Part shown: positions 1,804 to 14,657 of the stretch, one piece after another
Layout: the number at the start of each line of letters is the position of its first letter
Position numbering within the stretch: position 1 is the first letter of the stretch
IMG/VR virus record: IMGVR_UViG_2940228231_000001
Coordinates: 1-40,713 of that record
Length of the DNA: 40,713 bases
Strand: one strand, 5' to 3'
Origin: a virus
The notes under the pieces: model-generated
The model's database searches: none
Told to the model about the DNA's origin: nothing
The model's input: the letters and a program-made list of their open reading frames with translations, nothing else
Program-made: the position numbers and the translations under genes

Positions 1804-1829
1804 ACAAAAGAGAGCCACCAATGTGACTC
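1804..1829 (-). terminator. Weak candidate terminator/attenuator after the radical SAM gene
   Basis: Minus strand GAGTCAC-attg-GTGGCTC (7 bp with one G-U pair) followed by TCTTTTGTT. Confidence 0.35.
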
Positions 1830-1837
1830 CCTACATA

Positions 1838-3142
1838 TTATCTCTTGCTTAGTTTTTCTAGCATAGCATATTCATCTTCGCCGATGATTGGCACTGCCCA
1901 TTCTTTTGGACAATTCATTGCAAAGATTCTAGGGTCTCCCTGCTTCTTGTAATACTTGTTCCAAAAGTATGCATTTGCAAGAGACGCTGCTTTGTGCATA
2001 TCGCAGATATTGATGACTCTGCTATTCGGCGTACCGTTAACTTGGTAGTTGTACGCTGTACACCAACTGCAACCAGCTCCAATAGGACAGTCAAAACACT
2101 CATCAGTAGATTGACTTTTTCTGGTTATGCAGCCAAGACAACTTAATCGGTCTTTGTGACACTGTGATGGTGCTAGCCCATTATCTACATCTCCAATAAT
2201 GTAAGGCTCTTGATCATCACCAAGACTACTCTCCATGTACCTTAGACACGGATAAAGCACGCCATCTGGGTCACATGCGAGCATCACACCATTTCCACCA
2301 CACCAGTTCTTGTTGTCGCTAGCAGGTAGTTTTTTGTAATTGTCCTCATTAAAAAAGGCATAATAGAGTTCATCCACGTCATTATCAATGACATAATCTG
2401 CAAACTGCTTAAGCTGCTTATATAATTCCTGAGCGTGAGATATTTCCCAACCGTCTTCATATACACAATTAATGTTAATTTCCCTGTATCCAAGGTCTAC
2501 CATATGCTTGCTTGCCTCATAAACATAAGACACATTGGCAGGTGCAACAGTAATCTTGCTTCCCATATAAAAGCCATTGGACATCCAATCTTTGATTGCT
2601 GCCACCGCAATATCATAAGAAGGCTTCCCATCAGGAAACAATCTACACATGTCATGTAGTTCTTTATTCCCATCTAGTGTTACGCTAAACGACATATGAT
2701 TACGGTGCTTGGTTAATACTCGTTGCACCTCTGGGTCATTATATAGTACGCCATTAGAGCAAATTCCAACTCTAAACTTATCTGCCCAAGGGTGATTTAA
2801 TCGCAGCGCCTCACCTCGAAAGTAGTCAACGATTTGGTCTATCAACGTAATCTCAAGTAACGGCTCTCCACCGATAAAGTCCAGTATTATCCCCGGAGAA
2901 GTTACCGGGTCAATATATGACCCGATACCTTTATCTCCGATCAATAACAAATCTACCAGCTTTTTAGCAACGTCTAAACTCATTCTGCGTTTGCCTTTAT
3001 GAGTTTGGTAACAATAACTGCAGGCCAAGTTGCAATCATCGGTTACCTGAAAAGTCACAGATTTTGCAAGCATTCCTGGTGGATATTCCGGGTAAAGCCT
3101 TGCTAACCAGTCGCAGTATTCTTCTACCTTTGGTATTGGCAT
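1838..3142 (-). CDS. Radical SAM enzyme with C-terminal SPASM-type auxiliary Fe-S domain (anSME-like fold; peptide/protein maturase candidate)
   Basis: CNLACSYC is the CxxxCxxC motif, and IGGEPLL is a SAM-binding glycine motif. C-terminal pattern is C-x12-G-x4-C (CGGNGVMLACDPDGVLYPC), then CFDCPIGAGCSWC, then a later Cys. Start overlaps the upstream stop (TAATG), with GAGGAGG RBS. Confidence 0.9.
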   Translation of the reverse strand: MPIPKVEEYCDWLARLYPEYPPGMLAKSVTFQVTDDCNLACSYCYQTHKGKRRMSLDVAKKLVDLLLIGDKGIGSYIDPVTSPGIILDFIGGEPLLEITLIDQIVDYFRGEALRLNHPWADKFRVGICSNGVLYNDPEVQRVLTKHRNHMSFSVTLDGNKELHDMCRLFPDGKPSYDIAVAAIKDWMSNGFYMGSKITVAPANVSYVYEASKHMVDLGYREININCVYEDGWEISHAQELYKQLKQFADYVIDNDVDELYYAFFNEDNYKKLPASDNKNWCGGNGVMLACDPDGVLYPCLRYMESSLGDDQEPYIIGDVDNGLAPSQCHKDRLSCLGCITRKSQSTDECFDCPIGAGCSWCTAYNYQVNGTPNSRVINICDMHKAASLANAYFWNKYYKKQGDPRIFAMNCPKEWAVPIIGEDEYAMLEKLSKR

Positions 3143-3483
3143 TACATGACCTCCTCAAACATACCATTTGTGCGAATTTCGCAGTCACACATCTGTGTAA
3201 CATATAACAGTCTAGTTCGAAAATCGATTTGCCAGTTGACGTTATGATTGCCAAATGTTGGGGCAACATAGCGTTCTGTGATTTCGGCTTTTGCATTTTC
3301 ATAATGCATTTTAGCTTCGATTTGCTTTTTTTCATAGGCCTTAAAGGCTTCTGTTTCAAGTACCAATTCTCCATAATTCGTAATAAGAAACGCTATATTG
3401 TCTTTCGTCATTTCGTTCTCGTAAAACGTCCGTTCTAAGTAACTGATTACTTTTTCATCTATTTTCATTCTAAATTTCTTCAT
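3142..3483 (-). CDS. 113-aa protein of unknown function, translationally coupled to the radical SAM gene (candidate maturase partner)
   Basis: ORF with TAATG overlaps at both ends. No recognisable motif. Helical N-terminal half, with MCDC near the C-terminus. Confidence 0.7.
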   Translation of the reverse strand: MKKFRMKIDEKVISYLERTFYENEMTKDNIAFLITNYGELVLETEAFKAYEKKQIEAKMHYENAKAEITERYVAPTFGNHNVNWQIDFRTRLLYVTQMCDCEIRTNGMFEEVM

Positions 3484-3806
3484 TATTTCGCCCCCATATC
3501 GCCGTCAAACATGATATCAATTTTTTCTTCGTAGTCGTTGATGACCCTAACGTAATCGATAAATCCGGTTAGACTATATACTTTGTCACCTTCTTTTTCG
3601 ACTCCGCCATTTTCTGTCACAATTCTAACCTCTGACGTTTTTGTTTCATCAGCGAATAGCTCTTTTAATTTTGCATCATCTGCTTCTCGTGCCTTTTTAC
3701 CTGCAATCGATATAACTGTTCTTGCACCATCAGTTCCAAAATATCCGTTTGAAAATCTGATGTTAGTAATTTCCACCTGTGTTTTGTCTTTAAATATTAA
3801 TTTCAT
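3483..3806 (-). CDS. 107-aa protein of unknown function in the Cys-repeat/rSAM cassette
   Basis: GGAGGG RBS 7 nt upstream of the ATG. Starts 3 nt after the stop of the Cys-rich gene. No recognisable motif. Confidence 0.7.
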   Translation of the reverse strand: MKLIFKDKTQVEITNIRFSNGYFGTDGARTVISIAGKKAREADDAKLKELFADETKTSEVRIVTENGGVEKEGDKVYSLTGFIDYVRVINDYEEKIDIMFDGDMGAK

Positions 3807-3809
3807 TTT

Positions 3810-4325
3810 TTATCCCTCCAAATTATTTTTAACTGTAACTGTTGATTGCCCACTGCATGTGTTAAAACATGTAGATGAGCATTGGCCCAAGCAACTGCTT
3901 TTACAATCACCTGCGCATCCTGTATTGCAACTACCACCGCAGCCATCACTACATCCCGAACACCCGCTGCATGCTTGACATCCCGTACAAGTTCCTGAGC
4001 AACTGCTACAGCTTGATGAACAAGCTCCGCCGCAGCCAGAACAGCCTGTGCAGCCTCCACAGCCAACCATACATGCTGCAGTGCAACCTTGACACCCTCC
4101 GGTGCATGAGGCAGTGCAACCTTGACACCCTCCGGTGCATGAGGCCGTACAGCCTGGCGAACATCCGATCCCACAACCCGTGCAGCCTCCTGAGCAAGTG
4201 CCCGAACATCCAGTGCAATCCTTAGTACATGCTGCGGTACAGACGCCCAAGCAACCAGTGCATGGTCCGCAACCGAGGCACGTACCTTTGCACGCTCCCG
4301 AACACGTTGACGATGAACACGCCAT
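3810..4325 (-). CDS. Hyper-cysteine repeat protein: 171 aa with 43 Cys, spaced almost exclusively CxxC/CxxxC, rest mostly G/S/T/A
   Basis: Start set at the internal ATG (MACSSSTCSGAC...), preceded by AAAGGAG plus 7 nt. The longer 195-aa ORF has no RBS. The Cys-repeat pattern is paralogous to the C-terminus of the upstream gene. Confidence 0.7.
   Translation of the reverse strand: MACSSSTCSGACKGTCLGCGPCTGCLGVCTAACTKDCTGCSGTCSGGCTGCGIGCSPGCTASCTGGCQGCTASCTGGCQGCTAACMVGCGGCTGCSGCGGACSSSCSSCSGTCTGCQACSGCSGCSDGCGGSCNTGCAGDCKSSCLGQCSSTCFNTCSGQSTVTVKNNLEG
4081..4146. repeat. Tandem 2 x 33-bp repeat (32/33 identical) inside the Cys-repeat gene
   Basis: gtgcaaccttgacaccctccggtgcatgaggc(a/c) occurs twice, encoding two copies of the 11-aa unit CTASCTGGCQG. 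Confidence 0.9.
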
Positions 4326-4339
4326 ATATTTTCTCCTTT

Positions 4340-4807
4340 CTACACCATCGTGCTGCTTGCACATGCTGTTCCACATGTTGCCGTGCAGCCTTGGCATCCA
4401 CTATCGCAAGCGCCTGAGCACCCGTTGCATCCACCGATGCAACTTCCAAAACACAGACCACTACATGCACCTCTGCATGAGCTAGTCTCACCTTCTATCG
4501 ATTCACTCGATATCAAATCCAAGTAATCATCTAAACTATTTACTGATGGAAGCGGTTCACCTTTTCGAACAAAACTTGCCTCCTGGTCTTCTACTGCATA
4601 GAGAATATTTATGGTTTTTTCCCCATGTTCGGCAAGAACTCTCGAACCCTTTTCTGGGACTTCTACAAAATCGTATTCTTCCTCACTGAATTCTCTCAGT
4701 GAACCAAAATCAATCGGTTCTTCGTCTTGGTCAAGTCCTGCTAGCGAACGTCTTTCCATTTCGGCTTTCACTCTTTGTTTTATCGCCTTAAATTCATCGG
4801 CTGTCAT
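4340..4807 (-). CDS. Bipartite protein: acidic N-terminal domain of about 108 aa plus 47-aa C-terminal tail with 11 Cys (CxxxC/CxxC)
   Basis: GGGGGTGAG RBS. The ATG is 4 nt after the tail-fibre stop. C-terminus is SSCRGACSGLCFGSCIGGCNGCSGACDSGCQGCTATCGTACASSTMV. Confidence 0.75.
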   Translation of the reverse strand: MTADEFKAIKQRVKAEMERRSLAGLDQDEEPIDFGSLREFSEEEYDFVEVPEKGSRVLAEHGEKTINILYAVEDQEASFVRKGEPLPSVNSLDDYLDLISSESIEGETSSCRGACSGLCFGSCIGGCNGCSGACDSGCQGCTATCGTACASSTMV

Positions 4808-4811
4808 ATGC

Positions 4812-6161
4812 TCACCCCCATACAGATGTTACCGTAACCCATTCTGAGCCATCATAATACTTAGCAACGCCAAAGGTTGCAGTATCAATCCAAAGCACGT
4901 TGGTTTTCTCTGGTTGAGTTTCGCTGACGATTACGCCGCCACCCGAAAAATTTGCTAATGCGTTAGCAATCACCTTATTTTTAACTGCATTATCTGAAGT
5001 AGTTGACAATTCATCGTCTAAAATGACTGTAGCATCACTGCCTGCTGGTCCGCGTTCTCCTTGAATTCCTTGTAATCCTTGAGGCCCTGTGTCGCCCTTT
5101 TCTCCTTTTTGCCCTTGTATACCTTGTTCGCCTTTAGGACCTTGTACTCCAGTATCTCCCTGTTCTCCCTTCTCGCCCTTTTCTCCTTTAACTCCCTGCG
5201 GTCCTCTATCTCCAGTATCTCCTTTTTCACCTTTTGCTCCCTTTAATGGGCCATTATTAACCCAAACGTTATTCAATCCATCAAATATGTAAATATCATA
5301 CGGAGCTATAACCCCAATGCTATAAGCGTCTCCAGTTGTAGGACTCGTTACTGATGAGTCGAGCAAATCTACTGTTGTAAAGTGACCTAGTATCTGAAAT
5401 CCATCACCTTTTGGACCTTGTTCACCCTGTATTCCCTGATCACCTTTCTCGCCCTTTGGTCCTGGGACACCTTGTTCTCCTTGCGCACCCATCGGGCCTT
5501 GTTCTCCAGTATCTCCTGGTTCTCCAGGCAATCCTTTAGAACCCTGTGGCCCTTGTTCTCCACGTGGTCCTTTTAACATTTCCAACTGCTCACTTGTAAA
5601 GTCGGCGAAAGTAAATGGATCTCCTTTGTCGCCTTTCATGAACCCGAAATCATGTCTTTTACCAGCTTTTGTGATAACAATTAAATGTTGATTTTCATCA
5701 ATGATAATTGTTTCAATGCTTTCTGCCAGTACTTGATTTGATTTCTCAGTTGATGCAATTAGCATGTCAATAATTTGTTCATAGATATCTTCTGTCGGAG
5801 GTTCAATAGTCTTTCCAGCAATGTATCCTCCATTAACCAATACTGGAAATGGCAAGCATTCCATATCCGCATCTTCTCTGACGGTCGAAATTACTTCGCC
5901 ATTCATCATACCTACAACAGAACATACGAACCCACCCTGCTTTATCACTTCCCACGGAATTAGGCATTCGTCATTTACTAACAACTGATATTTCTTGATG
6001 CCATTTCGCTCAAATATTGCCGTTTTGCACATGCCTGCCCATTCCGGAGAAAACTTGAACACTGCATTCAAGTAGTTTTTGCTTCCTGCAGCAAGTATCC
6101 GTTTTTCTTTGCATGAAGCATGCTGTCCGTTTATTTCAAAATGTACATTTACCATCAACAT
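4812..6161 (-). CDS. Collagen-like tail fibre protein
   Basis: Two long G-X-Y tracts ([57 protein letters not shown] and [67 protein letters not shown]). C-terminal VLWIDTA...KYYDGSEW module. The true start is probably the ATG at 6155, which has better RBS spacing. Confidence 0.85.
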
Positions 6162-6221: not shown

Positions 6222-9200
6222 TTAGTTGCCATATGCGATTTTCTTTGCACCTTCAATTAAAGCATTAACTTTCCAGTTGTAGTCATCATGATAGTCATAA
6301 GCATCTGCGTAAGCACGATCCATTCTACCAACACGAATGTAGCTGGCTATTTCATATACAGCTAGGTTACGCTTCTTTCCAAGGATATAGTCATAATCAA
6401 CTCCGTATTCTTCCATTGTATTGATGACTTCATACGCTGTGCCTAAATCCTCATTCTCAAGGGCATCGTCACAAGCACCACCAAGTGCCGTCTTAACTTT
6501 CTTGTCAACAGACTCTCTATCTACACCTGCATCAATTAACCTGCTAGCTTCTGATTCTATCTTGTCAGCATCATTGCTTTCCAATGCCGTCTTAAATTCC
6601 TTTGAGAATGCCTTTGAAATCCTGCCACCAATATATTCAGAGTCAACACCATTAGCCTTCATGTCATCTTCAATCATTCTAGCAACATCCATATCTCCAT
6701 TTTTCATCGCCTTGATGTAGTATGCCATGAACTTTGGTCTGTTTTCTTCCAGGGTGATATCATATCTGTATTTCGCAGATAAGTATCCAATGTACTCCTC
6801 AGCTACAAAACACTTTGCAATTTGCTTTGCAGCAGCTTCAGCGTCTCTTGTTACATTGCCTAACGGAATTCCTGTAACAGAACTGATTGCAGAGGCCATT
6901 AACTTTGTCTTTTCGTATATTGTGTATTTGTCAGAACTCCACATTTTAATAGAATTCACTAGGTCTGCAATGCCATCCATATCCATTCTCGACACTTCAA
7001 ACCCTTGTGCCATAGAGCTAACATCACGGAGCAGTGGCAATAGGTTTGCTGGATTTGCATTATCAATAAAGTTTTCTAGGATGTAGTTTTGCCATCTTTC
7101 TAAATAATCTTTGTCGTCATCATCCTCACCTCTTGCTCTAAGTGCATCAATCAGTGCTGCTGCCATTGATACTGCAACTGCATTTGCCACATATACGCTT
7201 GTCACTCGTGACACTCTAGCTGCAGCACCTTTTTTATTGCCGTTTTTAAAGTCTTTCCCTGCTAGTACAAGCTCTGTACGCATCATGTTGAATGTTTTTG
7301 TAGGCTCTGCCATGAATGATGTAATCATCTTGCTTGCTAAGTCTTGGCTACGCATAATTTGCGATCTATGGAATACCGAGTCAACTACTTGAGTACGGTC
7401 AACCACATACGAGAACCGTTCGTTAACAGCTTTCCAATATGCATCCGTTCCGGGCTTCAAATCTTTTCGCTTAGAATTAATTTCTTTCTTAACACCGCTC
7501 CATATTGTTGCCCATGTAATGTCATCGGCCTTTCCGTACATTTCCATGAACAATGTATCGACAATGTTTCGCTTGCCAATGAAGATATCTCTCATGCTTC
7601 TGGAAACATCAGTGTTATAAAAACCCCAACTTTTCCACCTTGCAATCTGACAATGCTCTTGCATTTCTTTTAAGCTAATCTTTCCTGGAGTCATAAGATA
7701 TGCAGGATTTATCACTGTTGCCGCTCTAACAATAGCAGTAGGTTGTTGTACCAACACTCTAAGATTTGCTCCAATTTTTGCCTTTTTGTAATTCGCAAGT
7801 AACTTATTGGACAGATTAGTGTCGTTGTTTCTAGCATGATTCTGATTTACGTCATTAACAAACCTGCGAATGTAATTGTTCACGTTGTCACCAAATGATT
7901 GTTGAATGCTTTTCTGCACTGTGGCCGATATTTTCCCGTCACTATTTCTTTGCTTGTAATTATATACTCGTTCAAAATCAGTGAGTGCAGGGACTAATGA
8001 GTTGTACATGGACATCGTATTCACGTGCTGTGTAAATACATTAAAGATATCGTCAACCACAATTGGGTTGTTCGCTTTCATTACAGTATTTTTTGTAAAT
8101 CCTACATTCTTAATCTTAGATGCCTGAACTTTGTCGAAACTCTCATCAAGGAAAGCATCTGAAGATTTAATCGGGAAATAGTGTTTTTCAGTAAACTTCT
8201 TGTACCCATATAGTTTCATAGAAGTTTCGTTACCCCACTCAGAACAGGTAGTCCCCATGAAACTCTGTAGCTCATCAGCGACCTTTTTCTGTTCTGCAGT
8301 AAGACTACCAATGATTCTTTTTACATCATCAATTGTTGGCATTACTTGTGCGTCTGACAATCTGCGCTTCGCAAATGATTTTGTCAGCTTCTGTCTAGTC
8401 TTGTCTACCACCCCAATTGGCGATGCAGTTATTCCAGAACCAAGGATATGATCCACAGCTTGTTCTCTGTTCATTAAGCAATAAAGCGACATGACCTGTG
8501 ATGGTACTAACTCTATAATTCCTCCGTTTTCTAAAGTGAACTTTTTTGCTCTTGCATTATCATCAATCCATTTCTTCACTTTGTACTTCTTAGCAAGCTC
8601 GGCAATAAAATCTTTGCCCTGCGATACATTATCAATATGCTTATCAAATCCACGTCTCATATTTTGGTAAAGCTCAAACATCTTCCCACCAACAGTTTCA
8701 AACATATCAATCGGATTGATATTTGTTTCATTGAAGAACCTATTAATTTCGCCTCTGAATCCTTCATACTGTTTCTTGGCTTTCATGGTTGCGTTGTCTG
8801 CAATTATGGTATCTCCATACTCTGAAATACTTTCTTTTAGGCCGTCACTGAAAGTTTTATTCATTGTGGACAGTGAGAAGCGAATATGCTTAATTAACCG
8901 ATACACTTGCTCAAGCTCATCAATGGACAGGTCCGAAAATCTTTTCCCATCTAGCTCCGCACTGAGTATGCTAAGCGCATCTTGTATACTCTCATCAATC
9001 TCAATGGTGGAATCTTCATTCTTTGCTAGCTTCTCATATTCATTTCTGAGTTCAGCCAGTTTCATTGTTCTTCGAGATGGGCCATACTTCCGCGTCCAGT
9101 TATCTGTCCTTGTCGTGCTAAAATCGAATCCAGACAGCATTGTAGCAATAGCCTTTGCGTATCCATGAGGGATATGTTTTGTCTCTGTTGGTCTCAACAA

Positions 9201-12200
9201 GCTTTCAGACATCCACTGAGTATAGGCTTCGATTCTTGAAGTGTAGTATTTCTTTTCTTTCTTGTCTTTATTCTGTTGCTTAATATCATTGATTTTATTC
9301 TTATAAAACTCATCTTTCTTATCAAGTCTAGACTTCATACGTTCTTTCTGTTTTTTCATCAAAGCATTTCTCTCAGCTTTTACTTTATCAACAGCCTTCA
9401 TCTTTTCCTCATGTTTTAGATCCGCAAATGTTTTTTTCTGCGCCAAGTCATATGACATCTGCAACACATCTTTCGCAATCGTATCCCTGAACTCAGCTAT
9501 CTCACCTTCTGAATATTCCTCCACATAAGGTTTAATACTTTCAACCACTTCCAGGATATTGTAAAGCTGGTCTACTTCATTTGTGTATTCCTGAGCATCA
9601 AACACTCCTGGATGTGTTTCAGCTAGCTCTTGATAAAAGGTATCAATCGGAATGCCTGAGTTCTTGGATAGTTTTACAATTCCGAAATGTGATTTTCTCA
9701 GTTCATTGAAATCGTCGATATCATTCCAATAGTTTTCACTGAGCCTCAAAGTTGTTTTCCTTAAGGTGTCACGCAATCCCTTGTAATCCGTCCACATTTC
9801 GTCATGAAGTATTTCCATTTTGTCCGTGATTTTATCCGCTACATTAAGGCATAAATCATCAATAAGGTTCCAGTTCCCTTCAGGTTTTCGCATCTCCGCA
9901 AAGACTTGTTTCACATCAGTCATTACACTTTCGTGCAAAATGCCATTGCGCTTGCCAAGATATGCTTCAATTAGTCTTGAGACCGCAATCCCAGTCTGTT
10001 TTGGTTCTGGTTCGGCAAACTTAGACCTCTTGAATTCCGCTTTTAATTTTTTATTGGTTTTTTCTAGCTCAGACACCTTCTGTTTTAGGTTGTCACTATC
10101 ATCCTTAATCTGGAATTTTCCTACATCTGAAACAATCTCATTTATTGTCAAACTATTGACATCATTCAGTTGTTGGAGTAAACTAAATAAAGAAGCAGTG
10201 TTGCCTCCGCGAGTACTTCCCGATTGGGTCGCCGCGGTCTTGGAAGGCACGCTGTTTTTTTGTACCATCTCAAGTTCATGAAGGTAATAACCTTGATATG
10301 CACTAGAAGTATCTCTATTTACAACAACCCCAACATAATAATCATCCATTCTAGTTGTTATTAGATTCCAAATTTTTATTGGAGCTGACAAAACAATAGT
10401 ATCATAGCCCCGCATCTTCCAGTTGTAATGTGCATCAATAATTTTTCCATTTTCAATCACTTCTGTAAGAGACTTAAATGCAACTGCCTTCATTCTCCCC
10501 ACTCCGTGACCTATCGATGATTTCACTCCTTTGTGCTCAAGAGAAATATCTCCGAGCACTGGATGATGCACTTCATTCCCAATGCTATCAAAATAATCTG
10601 ATACCTGAGTAACTAAGTCGATCTGACCCTTGGCAAACTCTTTACCTGTGAGCGTAGTCACTGGGTTCATCTCTGTCACGGCTTTCATGTTAGCGAGCAC
10701 TTGTGTCTTATCTATGTTAAATCTCTTGATTTCACTTTCTTTCATCTGATATCTGATGTCTGTGTCAGTTGTGGGATTTTCGTTCGCTACAGACTTAATC
10801 TGCTCCGAATAGAACGGAATTACAACAGTGTGAATGTCTCCACCGTTTTTCCCACCTTGGTCAATAATCCCATCATACCCTTTATCTTTTAAATAAGCCG
10901 TGATTGCATCTGGTATTGAAGTCCATGCATGAGTTGTGCCTTTTTCTATATCTCTTTCAAGACTCTCTACCCATTCTAGTGGATTACGATTTCTTTTATC
11001 CCACATATCAGAATTGGCGGATTCGCTTTCGTAAACTGACAAGTCAGCAGATTCAAGCCAAGTTTTTAAATCAGCTATTAAGGATTGATCGATATCTGCA
11101 GTTGACATAGGATTGACTACATTTAAATATGTTTCATATACTTTTTCATCTCTTAAATACGGGTCGTTATAGTATACGCCTTCTACTCCTGCAAGCTCAA
11201 GTACTTCCATGAACCTTGATTCCTCATTGATTAAGTCTCCACTATTAAGCCAAGAATCAACCAATGCCTGTAATGCGTTCCCTTTTGCATATCTAAGGTC
11301 ATAAGAACCATTCCCAATATTATTGCCTGGAATAGTAATAATGTTTTCTACATCGTCATCAAATGCGATTTCCTTAGCCTTAGTTTTAATCTCTTCTCTT
11401 TCTGCATTAGACAACTTCCCCCACAATTCGACAATGCTCATATCTTTCCCATTGTAATTAATACGGAATTGTGTTTCATATGAGTCATATTCGTTATCAT
11501 AATTAATAGATGTGTCTTGCTTATCCTTGCTGTAGTTATCAGCAATATCCTTGTTGTCAGTAAAAAAAGCCATTGGTCCACTTGTAGCACGTTCAGGGTC
11601 AAAATAGTTTCCTACTCTATCTGCTCTTGATGTCCCATGATACATAACCTTGAGATGCCCATTATTATCACGCACTTTGGATTTTTTGAAGTATTCAGCT
11701 TGATTCTCTGATAAAGAATTGCCTTCATTATCTTTAAGTGAATACTTCTCTTTTGTCTCGGATACTGCTTTCACACCAATGCTCTCATTCAAAGCTTTAG
11801 CCCAAAGCGACTGCGCTTCTTCCACAATCCCAAGTGCCTCAAGCCAGTCACCCTTCTTGTTTCCTGATGCCATTCTATGCAGCGTGTCCAACAATGCCCT
11901 AATACCGTCAACCAATTTTTCAGCTAACGAACGATTTTCATTAACTAATGACTCAATCATGTCCACATCTTTAAAGAAAACATCTGTAGCGTCTGCAAGT
12001 AATTCATCTTCAGCCTGAGACACAGTAAGGTCTACACCGTTTCTTGCGTATCTATCAATCATGCCTCTAATCTTAGCATCATATTTTTTCTGGTCAGCTT
12101 CATAAAACTTTTTGAATACAAATTGCTTCAATTCATTATATGCTTCTGGTGCTGTCTCCTGCAGGTTATGTGTTAATTCATGTTTAAGCACATCAAAGAT

Positions 12201-14657
12201 AGGATTTTGCGACTTTGCAGAGATATAAATCGTTCCATCTTGATATTTGCCATTAGCTACGTCCTTTTGCCCAGCAACATCTATCTGATCCACAACCACA
12301 ACATTCTTACCCGTAACCTGCACAAATGTGTTTAATGCTGCAGATTTCTCCTTACCGAACTGTTTCTCATTCTTTTCGGACATAGTAAGATTGCCGATAC
12401 GTCTCTTAGACTTAACGACCTTTTTCTGCGCTTGCTTGACTTGCTCTTGCTCAATATGGTATATCTGATTTCCCGCATTATATGCAGCCATTTTCACTGC
12501 TTCAGGAATAACCTTATCATAGGTTTTTAATATCTTTCCGTAGTCATAATTAACTTGGCCTCCTTGATAGTATAGATTGAACCCTGCTACGTATTCAGGA
12601 AGTTTCTTGAAATCAATATCCTCCATACCCTTATTGAATATTGCTGCAGTCTGTTCATCAAGATTCACCGTGAGGGCCTGAGAAGCCATTTCTCTTGCTT
12701 CTTGTCTAGCCTCCTTAATGACGCCTTCCTTCTGCCTTGCTTTCATTCCTGCTGCATATATCGACAATTCATCTATGGTACTCTGATTAGAGAAAGGCAG
12801 CTTTACGCCTGTTTCCATTTCTATGATTGCACGTGCGTCTTCATTGCCTACTGCAGCAACATTGAAATCTTGTGCTGTTGCTGTTCCCAGTACAATTCTA
12901 GCAATAGGTGTTGATACCGCTTTCGATGTTTCTGCATCTCTTCCACTGGCTGTCATCATAGATTCTATCTCGGCTGCTTTTCCAGCTACTCTCTTTGCCA
13001 TAACTTGGTCAACCATAACTTGCTCTACTTCGCTCCCAACACGTCTATCGTTCTTCATCATGTCAGTAGTACCCGCTGTAGCATGCAAATTTTGTACATA
13101 TTCCTGTTCAGCTATATTAGCCTTTTCTATCATGGCCTTCTCGGTTTTATATTGCTCCTGATAGATTTTATTAGCCAAGTCAACTACTTGTTCATTCAAA
13201 ACAGCTTCTCCACTAGATTGTTGTTTTTCTAGGCTTGTCGCAAAACTATATGCTTCAGACTTTTCTCCTTGCGCTTTTCCGGCCTTGATTAATTCAGTTT
13301 TCTCGGACTCGGAAAAGGTTGCTGTTTTCTGAGTTCCCTTTGCCTTATTTACAATAGCACTACCGCCGCCAAGAGCACCAGACATAGCTGCGCCCATAAC
13401 AAAATCACTGCCCATCTGCTGTAAATAGCCAGTTTTTATTGGATGCTTATACTGTTCAATTGCGTTCTTGTCGTAGATCGATTCAATAGCGGGCTGAAAC
13501 AAATCGGATACAACTTCTTCTGACCCTTCTTCAATCATTCCAGAGCCAGCTTTGACTGCATTCTTGACAATCTTATACGTTAGATCCTTCGAAACGCCCT
13601 GTTTAGTTAATTTCTTAGTCAGATTATATGCGGTTCTTTCGGCCACATTGTCAAGAATACCTTTTCCAGCGGTGTTTTTCATGACATCAAACGGGGAGAA
13701 TAATTTCTCAGTTGCAGCTTCTACGGAACCACTTAATGCACCGACTAAAAGCTGTTTGTTTTTTGATGCCCCAGATTCCCTTGCAGTCATTGATGAATCA
13801 CCAAAGGAACGCAAAAACATCGGTGCCAAAATTCCAGTACCTGTAGCTGCGCCAATCGTAGCGTCACCCGCCCACTGAAGCATCTGTGAATACAAATCAA
13901 TACCGAACTGCCCTGCTTTGCCTAATCCTTCCTTCGCCTTTTCAATGTCTGCATTTCCAGCCGCTCTTAATTTGCTAGCTTTTTCTTGAATATCAGCTGA
14001 TGCTTTGTCAGCAATTGACTGAATCTCATTACGTCTTTTTTTATTGAATTCAGCCGTTTGCTTAACACTTTCTTTGATTTGTCTTTTCTCTTCGCTGGTT
14101 TTGTTAACCCATCTTCTATCATTACTACCGCGTTGTCTTGTATAGGCGTTTTGATTCTCTCTATTAATTCTCCCTTGACTAATATTGCCGTGCATAGTCG
14201 CAAAAGTATTCATGAAAGATGAACCAACATTCTTTACTGTTCCTTTAGTAGCGTTACCAATCCTGTCTCCAGCTTTGGACTCTCTTATTTGATTGTATGT
14301 GCGAGCATTACCACCATTCGTATTCATCACCTTGCTAAGTTCGCCTGCACCTGTATTCGCAGTTCTCCTGCGATTTTTAGCATTGCTAGTAGCCTTGCTC
14401 TTTCCAGAATTCTGAATGTTTACCTGGTTTGCTTTGTTATTCGTATTGAAAGTCGGCTTCTTTGCAGAAGTTGCAATATCTTTATTCGCTAACTGTTTAG
14501 AAACGGTATTCTTTGTGTTGTTTTTTGGATTGTGGTTAGGATATTTCTTATTCCAATTATTTATAATTTCCTTGTTTCGTTTCTTTTCTTCTTGATCTGA
14601 TTTCCTGGCTGATGCTATTTCTTTTTCAAACCATTTTCTGTCACTTGCTTTACTCAT
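6222..14657 (-). CDS. Giant 2811-aa multidomain virion-associated protein (polyvalent-protein-like) with HExxH metallopeptidase motif
   Basis: Single uninterrupted ORF with AAGGAG RBS. K/N/R-rich N-terminus, then Gly/Ala-rich hydrophobic segments (AGDATIGAATGTGILAPMF; GAAMSGALGGGSAIV). HELTH at aa 826-830 (nt 12168..12182). Further conserved-looking blocks VMYHGTS...FFTDNKDIADNYSK and HKGVKSSIGHGVGRMK. Confidence 0.85.
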   Translation of the reverse strand: MSKASDRKWFEKEIASARKSDQEEKKRNKEIINNWNKKYPNHNPKNNTKNTVSKQLANKDIATSAKKPTFNTNNKANQVNIQNSGKSKATSNAKNRRRTANTGAGELSKVMNTNGGNARTYNQIRESKAGDRIGNATKGTVKNVGSSFMNTFATMHGNISQGRINRENQNAYTRQRGSNDRRWVNKTSEEKRQIKESVKQTAEFNKKRRNEIQSIADKASADIQEKASKLRAAGNADIEKAKEGLGKAGQFGIDLYSQMLQWAGDATIGAATGTGILAPMFLRSFGDSSMTARESGASKNKQLLVGALSGSVEAATEKLFSPFDVMKNTAGKGILDNVAERTAYNLTKKLTKQGVSKDLTYKIVKNAVKAGSGMIEEGSEEVVSDLFQPAIESIYDKNAIEQYKHPIKTGYLQQMGSDFVMGAAMSGALGGGSAIVNKAKGTQKTATFSESEKTELIKAGKAQGEKSEAYSFATSLEKQQSSGEAVLNEQVVDLANKIYQEQYKTEKAMIEKANIAEQEYVQNLHATAGTTDMMKNDRRVGSEVEQVMVDQVMAKRVAGKAAEIESMMTASGRDAETSKAVSTPIARIVLGTATAQDFNVAAVGNEDARAIIEMETGVKLPFSNQSTIDELSIYAAGMKARQKEGVIKEARQEAREMASQALTVNLDEQTAAIFNKGMEDIDFKKLPEYVAGFNLYYQGGQVNYDYGKILKTYDKVIPEAVKMAAYNAGNQIYHIEQEQVKQAQKKVVKSKRRIGNLTMSEKNEKQFGKEKSAALNTFVQVTGKNVVVVDQIDVAGQKDVANGKYQDGTIYISAKSQNPIFDVLKHELTHNLQETAPEAYNELKQFVFKKFYEADQKKYDAKIRGMIDRYARNGVDLTVSQAEDELLADATDVFFKDVDMIESLVNENRSLAEKLVDGIRALLDTLHRMASGNKKGDWLEALGIVEEAQSLWAKALNESIGVKAVSETKEKYSLKDNEGNSLSENQAEYFKKSKVRDNNGHLKVMYHGTSRADRVGNYFDPERATSGPMAFFTDNKDIADNYSKDKQDTSINYDNEYDSYETQFRINYNGKDMSIVELWGKLSNAEREEIKTKAKEIAFDDDVENIITIPGNNIGNGSYDLRYAKGNALQALVDSWLNSGDLINEESRFMEVLELAGVEGVYYNDPYLRDEKVYETYLNVVNPMSTADIDQSLIADLKTWLESADLSVYESESANSDMWDKRNRNPLEWVESLERDIEKGTTHAWTSIPDAITAYLKDKGYDGIIDQGGKNGGDIHTVVIPFYSEQIKSVANENPTTDTDIRYQMKESEIKRFNIDKTQVLANMKAVTEMNPVTTLTGKEFAKGQIDLVTQVSDYFDSIGNEVHHPVLGDISLEHKGVKSSIGHGVGRMKAVAFKSLTEVIENGKIIDAHYNWKMRGYDTIVLSAPIKIWNLITTRMDDYYVGVVVNRDTSSAYQGYYLHELEMVQKNSVPSKTAATQSGSTRGGNTASLFSLLQQLNDVNSLTINEIVSDVGKFQIKDDSDNLKQKVSELEKTNKKLKAEFKRSKFAEPEPKQTGIAVSRLIEAYLGKRNGILHESVMTDVKQVFAEMRKPEGNWNLIDDLCLNVADKITDKMEILHDEMWTDYKGLRDTLRKTTLRLSENYWNDIDDFNELRKSHFGIVKLSKNSGIPIDTFYQELAETHPGVFDAQEYTNEVDQLYNILEVVESIKPYVEEYSEGEIAEFRDTIAKDVLQMSYDLAQKKTFADLKHEEKMKAVDKVKAERNALMKKQKERMKSRLDKKDEFYKNKINDIKQQNKDKKEKKYYTSRIEAYTQWMSESLLRPTETKHIPHGYAKAIATMLSGFDFSTTRTDNWTRKYGPSRRTMKLAELRNEYEKLAKNEDSTIEIDESIQDALSILSAELDGKRFSDLSIDELEQVYRLIKHIRFSLSTMNKTFSDGLKESISEYGDTIIADNATMKAKKQYEGFRGEINRFFNETNINPIDMFETVGGKMFELYQNMRRGFDKHIDNVSQGKDFIAELAKKYKVKKWIDDNARAKKFTLENGGIIELVPSQVMSLYCLMNREQAVDHILGSGITASPIGVVDKTRQKLTKSFAKRRLSDAQVMPTIDDVKRIIGSLTAEQKKVADELQSFMGTTCSEWGNETSMKLYGYKKFTEKHYFPIKSSDAFLDESFDKVQASKIKNVGFTKNTVMKANNPIVVDDIFNVFTQHVNTMSMYNSLVPALTDFERVYNYKQRNSDGKISATVQKSIQQSFGDNVNNYIRRFVNDVNQNHARNNDTNLSNKLLANYKKAKIGANLRVLVQQPTAIVRAATVINPAYLMTPGKISLKEMQEHCQIARWKSWGFYNTDVSRSMRDIFIGKRNIVDTLFMEMYGKADDITWATIWSGVKKEINSKRKDLKPGTDAYWKAVNERFSYVVDRTQVVDSVFHRSQIMRSQDLASKMITSFMAEPTKTFNMMRTELVLAGKDFKNGNKKGAAARVSRVTSVYVANAVAVSMAAALIDALRARGEDDDDKDYLERWQNYILENFIDNANPANLLPLLRDVSSMAQGFEVSRMDMDGIADLVNSIKMWSSDKYTIYEKTKLMASAISSVTGIPLGNVTRDAEAAAKQIAKCFVAEEYIGYLSAKYRYDITLEENRPKFMAYYIKAMKNGDMDVARMIEDDMKANGVDSEYIGGRISKAFSKEFKTALESNDADKIESEASRLIDAGVDRESVDKKVKTALGGACDDALENEDLGTAYEVINTMEEYGVDYDYILGKKRNLAVYEIASYIRVGRMDRAYADAYDYHDDYNWKVNALIEGAKKIAYGN

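Follow-up and report, generated by a model that had tools for sequence, protein, structure and literature searches.

The apparently temperate phage analysed here (IMG/VR record IMGVR_UViG_2940228231_000001, 40,713 nucleotides, hereafter the window, which is the entire 40.7-kb contig C13 within a 2.17-Mb genome) carries, among late genes that all lie on the minus strand, a gene for a protein of 155 residues directly after its collagen-like tail-fibre gene. The Cys-free N-terminal part of this protein, referred to below as the N-domain, defines a phage-specific family in which a domain of approximately 105 residues is followed by a junction and by CXXX repeats. The gene itself encodes the front half of a phage-type CXXX-repeat protein that is split, its back half being encoded by the adjacent gene, for a protein of 171 residues, and both belong to a cassette that includes a radical S-adenosylmethionine (SAM) enzyme of the SPASM type, the maturase (coordinates are collected in Table 1). 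From comparison of the sequences we propose, with a probability of roughly 0.45, that the N-domain would serve as an anchor or connector plugging a Cys ladder onto the fibre apparatus, and that in the split forms the 11-Cys tail would recruit a ladder made separately. This role is preferred over that of a handle by which the maturase recognizes its substrate; the two roles are not exclusive.

Two-part architecture of the 155-residue protein

A preliminary description, made from the letters alone, had pictured the protein as bipartite, with an acidic, Cys-free first part that looked folded or helical and that switches abruptly to a Cys-rich tail, and this picture is borne out in its essentials. 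Indeed, residues 1-108 contain 28 Asp or Glu, 12 Lys or Arg and no Cys, and residues 109-155 contain 11 Cys at spacings of 4, 4, 4, 4, 3, 4, 4, 3, 4 and 4, which identifies the tail as CXXX repeats; it has a single Asp and no Glu. In the AlphaFold2 (AF2) model, computed from an alignment of 40 sequences, residues 1-106 are modelled as a small helical domain (helices 3-21, 38-41, 59-69 and 89-100), with means of 68-93 in pLDDT, the predicted score of the local distance difference test, for the blocks of 10 residues across residues 1-100; the Cys tail (residues 107-155) is modelled as disordered with pLDDT <50. The abrupt switch between the two parts could be located at a near-invariant junction, SSCRGAC(S/T)GLC. 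The acidity, on the other hand, holds for the window protein and does not extend to its relatives: the net charge of -16 of this N-domain is the extreme of the family, the median net charge of which is 0, and strong acidity is therefore not a family trait.

Both parts of the protein are maintained by selection. In comparisons with five relatives the synonymous sites are saturated (proportion of synonymous differences, pS, 0.68-0.94), and the proportion of nonsynonymous differences (pN) amounts to 0.29-0.41 in the N-domain versus 0.07-0.22 in the Cys tail, which makes the tail the most constrained part of the protein. Since pN lies well below the saturated pS, the N-domain and the tail are both under purifying selection, the tail more strongly. 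This selection, together with the 43 clusters of homologues and the more than 150 loci described below, demonstrates that the gene is no chance open reading frame (ORF).

A phage-specific domain family

When the whole library was searched with HMMER for residues 1-112 of the protein, 43 representative clusters were obtained at E<=1e-3, far more than in a word-based search, which found only one close relative. The N-domain is carried by more than 150 loci. In every complete member the almost invariant junction E...G..SSCRGAC(S/T)GLC.G.C comes next, and behind it lie CXXX repeats whose length varies widely (10-125 Cys); fewer than 10 Cys were never found behind an N-domain in any complete ORF with context. 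Three candidates for an N-domain without a Cys tail were discarded, two of them (P0022 and P0045) lying on contigs of less than 1 kb without context and the third (P0028) in a rearranged locus without the radical SAM gene. The window protein shows both features that define the family, as it carries the junction and matches the hidden Markov model (HMM) of the N-domain with 104.6 bits (E 8.5e-31). The most conserved positions of the domain, derived from 76 clusters at 80% identity, are K10, K14, E16, R19, R20, G35, Y45-D46-F47, P51, E60, G62, K64 and D74.

The family stands apart from the described ones. The 155-residue protein has no match in Pfam, NCBIfam or PHROG and no tblastn match in GenBank phage records. 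For the N-domain, a profile search gave no sequence match in the PDB, Foldseek gave no fold match against the PDB, and the VIA wide comparison gave a top Z of 5.0, which lies within the noise for helical models. In BFVD and Atlas the domain matches only viral hypothetical proteins of its own family, one cluster of which is partly annotated as PF27846 (tSAM_targ_Cxxx_rpt). A derivation of the N-domain from the TIGR04119 domain of the enzyme was rejected (hhalign probability 0.2%). The enzyme family and the repeat are already known, being catalogued in TIGRFAMs/NCBIfam and in PF27846. What is new here is the delineation of the N-domain family with its invariant junction, the near-obligate presence of the domain in phage-type cassettes and its absence from the two cellular loci examined, and the origin of the pair of 155- and 171-residue proteins from a split gene. 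A literature search on the family names and on phage radical SAM Cys-rich proteins found no paper on the phage cassette and no experimental paper on the TIGR04114-04119 CXXX family.

Linkage of the N-domain to the maturase and its helper

On the minus strand the fibre gene is followed by the genes for the 155- and 171-residue proteins, for two small proteins of 107 and 113 residues and for the maturase, and then by those for a holin and an amidase. Against TIGR04115 ('radical SAM peptide maturase, CXXX-repeat target family'; cut-off 350) the maturase scores 496 bits, a result confirmed on the genome; PapB follows as the next-best family (163 bits, PapB cut-off 340), and TIGR04463 gives 58 bits (cut-off 525). 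From residue 27 onward it aligns to the SCIFF maturase model TIGR03974, starting at profile position 97, which indicates that it has no fused recognition element (RRE) of the kind known for RiPPs (peptides made by ribosomes and then modified post-translationally). No match to TIGR04119 ('CXXX_matur') was found on the window contig. In GenBank phage records the maturase has matches in two uncultured records only, at 38-40% identity.

The loci compared were obtained from a metagenome scan with the junction motif (80 loci), from IMG/VR and GTDB scans (3 more) and, for the others, from exact look-ups. A further IMG/VR scan was seeded only with the alignment of the maturase and matched at least 536 stretches; 80 of these were kept and analysed together with 2 from a single-sequence scan. 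Among the resulting 82 loci, 75 contain a gene with the N-domain, or 75 of the 76 with context. Six of the seven exceptions have no upstream sequence, and the seventh, on the chimeric contig L144, has kept only the last 20 residues of the N-domain gene. In this last locus (L144:2342-4858) an SbcC-like ORF of 838 residues merges into these final 20 residues of the gene for N-domain and Cys tail, probably owing to a chimeric contig or a rearrangement. In the reverse direction, all of the loci seeded with the N-domain and having at least 3.5 kb downstream (37/37) contain the maturase and a gene like that for the 113-residue protein, and the same two genes lie downstream in 70 of 70 family loci with context that were seeded with the radical SAM enzyme. 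Among the loci with a maturase, the 113-like gene occurs in 132 of 134 and the 107-like gene in 88 of 134. The system is abundant, with no fewer than 536 IMG/VR loci and some 3000 clusters of the maturase, and in sipho-, myo- and podo-like contexts alike the cassette keeps its position inside tail modules.

The preliminary description had taken the persistence of the same maturase beside homologues without the N-domain as an observation that would speak against its proposals for this domain. Such a situation exists in the cellular TIGR04115 loci G129 and G698 but not in the phage-type cassettes, where the domain is as good as always present.

One explanation, which elaborates one of those proposals, is that the N-domain is a leader-like recognition domain that docks the substrate on the pair of maturase and helper, its own tail being modified processively and the leaderless 171-residue half being modified in trans or in a complex, so that no role in the particle is needed. 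The order of leader and core, the invariant junction and the invariant charged positions of the domain are in keeping with such a function, as is the perfect co-occurrence with the radical SAM enzyme and the 113-like helper whichever type of fibre protein lies upstream. Moreover, the enzyme starts at the radical SAM core and has neither an RRE nor the TIGR04119 domain of its cellular relatives, and in another family there is a precedent, the N-terminal domain of CrpA helping engagement by CrpC (PMC13692751). On the other hand, in several lineages most of the repeats are on a leaderless polypeptide starting with MAC... (43 Cys in the window, 64 in L100), cellular TIGR04115 enzymes manage with short leaders and without any such domain, a pure recognition module needs no tail of its own with at least 10 Cys that is more constrained than the module itself, and the cassette has no protease to remove the N-domain. 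We consider recognition plausible but less likely than a role as anchor.

Relation to the tail fibre

The ATG of the gene for the 155-residue protein lies 4 nt past the TGA of the gene for the 449-residue collagen-like fibre and is preceded by a Shine-Dalgarno (SD)-like sequence, GGGGGTGAG. Relatives share this position right after the fibre gene. Both the membership of the gene in the maturase cassette and its tie to the fibre gene, as put forward in the preliminary description, are confirmed by the conserved linkage and by this 4-nt gap.

The last ~45 residues of the fibre (window 4815-4994, minus strand) form a conserved tip, ..AP..T..LWIDT..GG.AKYY.G..W....VWG, with the stop codon right after WG. 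Of 87 distinct N-domain sequences, 54 lie behind a gene that ends in a tip of this kind, ..AP..T..LWIDT..GG..KYY.G..W....(V/T)WG-stop. Another 21 of the 87, from two very abundant myovirus-like phages, sit behind a protein of 188-200 residues ending in ...DY.L...SAV/ITSL. The latter group forms one long-branched clade in the N-domain tree, the deepest split of which follows the type of the upstream protein. This joint change of N-domain type and upstream protein type fits co-adaptation and, equally, shared descent. Two fibre genes with the LWIDT...VWG tip are present in L012, and the copy in L011 has a weak precomputed Pfam match to Mtd_N.

In one siphovirus lineage (L015:9006-9566, L035, L055, L056, L161 and L172) the fused proteins carry alternative C-terminal modules of ~130-190 residues past a fixed AFGAVV joint, or end there, which looks like module swapping of the host-range type. 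A constant N-terminal end, a repeat rod and a variable C-terminal end are the usual layout of receptor-binding fibres. For a swapped C-terminal module AF2 gave no usable model (mean pLDDT 30.6), and a feature search in Atlas gave weak leads only.

Genes directly after fibre genes often code for fibre chaperones. The position of the gene would therefore also suit a non-virion assembly factor or metal-binding protein, with a Cys tail that binds Zn or Fe-S and an N-domain that acts as tail-fibre chaperone. Dense Cys among small residues can bind metals, the tail is without the usual Asp/Glu acceptors, and metal binding is considered by the authors of the CrpA study as well (PMC13692751). We judge this explanation improbable, given that the cassette always includes a dedicated maturase of the TIGR04115 family, to which thioether-forming PapB is the closest characterised relative, and that 10-125 Cys combined with swapped C-terminal modules look like a structural rod.

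Origin of the 155- and 171-residue proteins from a split gene

Fused relatives dominate the family; these are single proteins of 330-600 residues with 60-125 Cys, which carry the conserved motif CK..C..STC(F/Y).TC..QC(Y/F)G a few residues before the C-terminus. In a split lineage, represented by the window, L011, L012/13, L014/21, L020 and L022, the first gene stops after 11 Cys with the conserved end CG(T/S)(G/A)CA.S.M(Y)A, and a separate gene supplies the remaining repeats together with the ancestral C-terminal motif. A second Cys gene is present in all loci with 11-Cys short forms (7/7). The 171-residue protein has kept the ancestral motif as CK..C..STC(F/Y).TC.GQS..., and it is this match to the end of the fused relatives that identifies it as the back half of a split gene. 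The preliminary description had called it a leaderless paralogue of the 155-residue protein: it is leaderless indeed, starting with MAC..., but in most relatives the two halves form a single ORF. Against the repeat model TIGR04114 (cut-off 20 bits) the 155-residue gene reaches 10.5 bits at best and the 171-residue gene 15.2 bits; the second Cys gene of L100 reaches 28.1 bits.

Fusion by frameshift or readthrough, either of the fibre with the 155-residue protein or of the latter with the 171-residue protein, was rejected for this lineage, because each gene has its own SD sequence and because the window, L011, L012 and L014 differ in the frame offset from the fibre to the first half as well as from the first half to the second. 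Elsewhere in the N-domain tree there are forms with 10, 16-18 or 26 Cys, and in L096 no Cys protein other than an N-domain with 10 Cys precedes the helper and the maturase.

Two further arrangements were observed. In L110 (4640-5321) and 21 similar IMG/VR loci of an abundant myovirus-like lineage, a second Cys frame of 224 codons lies in frame with the N-domain gene past a single TAA. This frame has a strong SD sequence (AAGGAGG), but AGG replaces the ATG of the relatives and no ATG, GTG or TTG start is available; a non-canonical start, readthrough or decay are possible explanations. In L175 and L180 (upstream of 4620) an extra Cys-repeat ORF ending in ...CTAQCYGTSTKS lies directly before the N-domain gene, so that the cassette can hold Cys proteins on either side of this gene.

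Proposed role of the N-domain

According to the reading that we prefer, the maturase would modify the Cys tail, probably by installing thioether cross-links, and the 155-residue protein would then be retained as a structural part of the tail-fibre apparatus, neither cleaved nor exported; that it stays intact is suggested by the absence of a protease and of an exporter from the cassette. The N-domain would be the proximal anchor by which the cross-linked Cys ladder is held on the particle, at the fibre tip or close to it. In the split version, the conserved 11-Cys tail of the 155-residue protein would join the separately made 171-residue ladder. During processing, the same domain may also act as a handle that steadies the substrate on the pair of maturase and helper.

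The preference for an anchor is based on the fibre-like layout of the fused relatives, on the location of the gene directly after the fibre gene and on the N-domain tree, which follows the type of upstream protein. It is further based on the fact that the N-domain always keeps a constrained Cys tail whereas most repeats of the split forms are on the leaderless polypeptide. Several points weigh against an anchor. Synteny and congruence of the tree may reflect shared history alone. With 21 of the 87 N-domains following a different upstream protein, the LWIDT...VWG tip is no universal dock. Recognition by the maturase, with CrpA as precedent, is equally compatible with the charged residues being invariant and with the perfect linkage to the helper and the radical SAM enzyme. 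As its fold has no known relative, nothing marks the N-domain as a fibre domain. Finally, the Cys tail offers few Asp, Glu or Gln acceptors of the PapB or CrpC type.

A broader picture, which we put forward tentatively and with more doubt than the anchor itself, is that phages of gut anaerobes might use a Cys ladder stapled by an enzyme as part of the equipment with which they recognize hosts, the N-domain being the universal plug to the fibre and, in the split versions, the plug with its 11-Cys adaptor recruiting the ladder. More speculatively, and by analogy, the fibre's free C-terminus (...VWG), which is strictly conserved, might be linked to a Cys by the maturase; such a link is conceivable because a C-terminal carboxylate can serve PapB as acceptor (PMC12373016).

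Other genes of the cassette and the transcription unit

A terminator-like hairpin separates the unit from fibre to maturase from the holin and amidase genes, and no terminator-like site was called between the fibre gene and the 155-residue gene by the consensus scan. The 155-residue gene is thus probably co-transcribed with the tail-fibre gene, in a unit that would be closed by the hairpin.

Table 1. Features of the cassette and of the preceding fibre gene in the window
Feature	Position	Strand	Basis
155-residue bipartite protein gene (P0001), front half of split phage-type CXXX-repeat protein	4340..4807	-	ORF and translation
N-domain (residues 1-108), helical and without Cys; the family's constant module	4484..4807	-	AF2, conservation
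Junction SSCRGACSGLC and 11-Cys CXXX tail, residues 109-155, ending CGTACASSTMV	4343..4483	-	Cys spacing
Collagen-like tail-fibre gene, 449 residues	4812..6161	-	Pfam Collagen, PHROG tail-fibre families
171-residue all-CXXX protein, 43 Cys; has an SD and an ATG of its own, in a different frame from the 155-residue gene	3810..4325	-	Sequence
107-residue accessory protein	3483..3806	-	Homologues in 88/134 cassette loci; weak PHROG matches only
113-residue helper protein, possibly remote TIGR04116 relative	3142..3483	-	In 132/134 radical SAM loci
Radical SAM/SPASM maturase, CXXX-repeat target family, 434 residues	1838..3142	-	TIGR04115, 496 bits
Terminator-like hairpin 3' of the maturase gene	1809..1832	-	Consensus scan, pattern match only

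The 113-residue helper has no match to the TIGR04116 HMM. When its family profile was compared with a true TIGR04116 member, hhalign gave E 0.0019 and a probability of 14%, over the last 15 residues only (W.IDF..r..y). Its predicted fold in Atlas is helical-hairpin-like, with no obvious PqqD fold. A fusion of helper and maturase was considered on the basis of an Atlas cluster of viral 'CXXX-repeat target family' maturases of 578 residues, which the structural search for the helper listed with an alignment over residues 1-108 (template modelling score, TM, 0.66); no fusion was found in ~165 loci or in a search of longer proteins.

Among the ORFs of the cassette no leader protease, exporter or immunity gene was found. 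This bears on the explanation of the protein as the precursor form of a free antimicrobial RiPP, whose leader would be unusually long and which would be released on lysis. Peptide systems served to define the enzyme family, and its cellular relatives lie beside ABC exporters and two-component systems; but leader protease, exporter and immunity gene are all missing from the phage cassette, relatives reach up to 600 residues with C-terminal globular modules, and the position in tail modules is the same in sipho-, myo- and podo-like contexts. We regard a free RiPP as very improbable. Without protease and exporter the phage cassette is not peptide-like, unlike the cellular locus L019 (G129) with its ABC exporter.

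Some observations concern other genes. The radical SAM gene of a related IMG/VR phage (L013:9776-12112) encodes 779 residues and has an intein-like insert with a homing-endonuclease region, and P0059 (600 residues) has a Hint_2 match. Upstream of the fibre gene of the window, a single ORF of 2811 residues with an HExxH motif occupies positions 6222-14657 of the minus strand; a protein of 531 residues beside it matches PHROG 511, 'internal virion protein'.

Significance

Small peptides and, since 2026, a single archaeal protein are the known settings of radical SAM thioether chemistry. The present cassettes place this enzyme class firmly in the tail-fibre modules of a very large number of gut phages, with targets that are protein-sized and all start with one conserved, unstudied domain. 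The partner of this domain would decide between a cross-linked structural part of the particle and a borrowed RiPP recognition trick. As the split version separates the handle and 11 Cys from the bulk of the ladder, it offers a small, expressible substrate of 155 residues for a first biochemistry of the TIGR04115 family, and the main practical value of the present analysis lies in this compact first substrate for an unstudied and very widespread phage system.

Comparison with known systems

One of the closest systems is the cellular TIGR04114-04119 CXXX system, which has in common with the phage cassette a TIGR04115 maturase, Cys at every third or fourth residue and a small helper directly before the maturase. 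Within the host's class few cellular genomes have TIGR04115 (2 of 399, one of the two being the prophage of the window). The two cellular loci examined, G129 (L019), which is the other of these two, and G698 (L182), are classic peptide loci with precursors of ~60-80 residues and a short leader, having 4 CXXX-spaced Cys in G129 and ~13-15 in G698; the N-domain is absent from both. The TIGR04116 protein of G129 scores 84.7 bits and the helper of G698 37.9 bits, the latter under the 50-bit cut-off. The G129 maturase has a C-terminal TIGR04119 domain (268 bits), and its locus includes, besides the ABC exporter, a two-component system. Whereas the cellular targets are short peptides, the phage target carries a folded domain of 105 residues and is, in the window, split in two. 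The phage cassette has neither the TIGR04119 domain nor an exporter and lies in a phage tail module, its target falls below the cut-off of TIGR04114, and its helper falls short of TIGR04116.

Another close system is that of CrpA and CrpC from Methanococcus voltae, which belongs to the TIGR04463 family and combines a SPASM radical SAM enzyme with a Cys-repeat protein of 28.8 kDa, the N-terminal domain of which aids engagement by the enzyme (Dieter et al. 2026, PMC13692751). Common to both are a protein-sized substrate, an N-terminal domain followed by C-terminal Cys repeats, a SPASM enzyme and a second paralogous protein in the cluster. On the other hand, the enzymes are of different families and CrpC has a fused RRE whereas the phage maturase has none. 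The repeats of CrpA are 17-residue units with C-X-X-Q/D, and its setting is archaeal and cellular, that of the cassette described here a phage.

By score, the nearest characterised family is that of PapA and PapB (freyrasin), a ranthipeptide system in which small thioether rings are formed serially from regularly spaced Cys (PMC12373016, PMC9413430). PapB links Cys to Asp or Glu acceptors (PMC12373016). However, the phage maturase remains below the PapB cut-off, PapA is a short peptide, and the tail of the 155-residue protein has one Asp and no Glu.

With modular phage tail fibres and receptor-binding proteins, finally, the family shares the location of the gene next to a fibre gene and, in the fused relatives, a constant N-terminal end, a repeat rod and a swapped C-terminal end. 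It differs from them in that the N-domain has no match in fold or sequence to known fibre domains, and in that the rod would here be an enzyme-modified Cys ladder instead of a beta-helix, a coiled coil or collagen.

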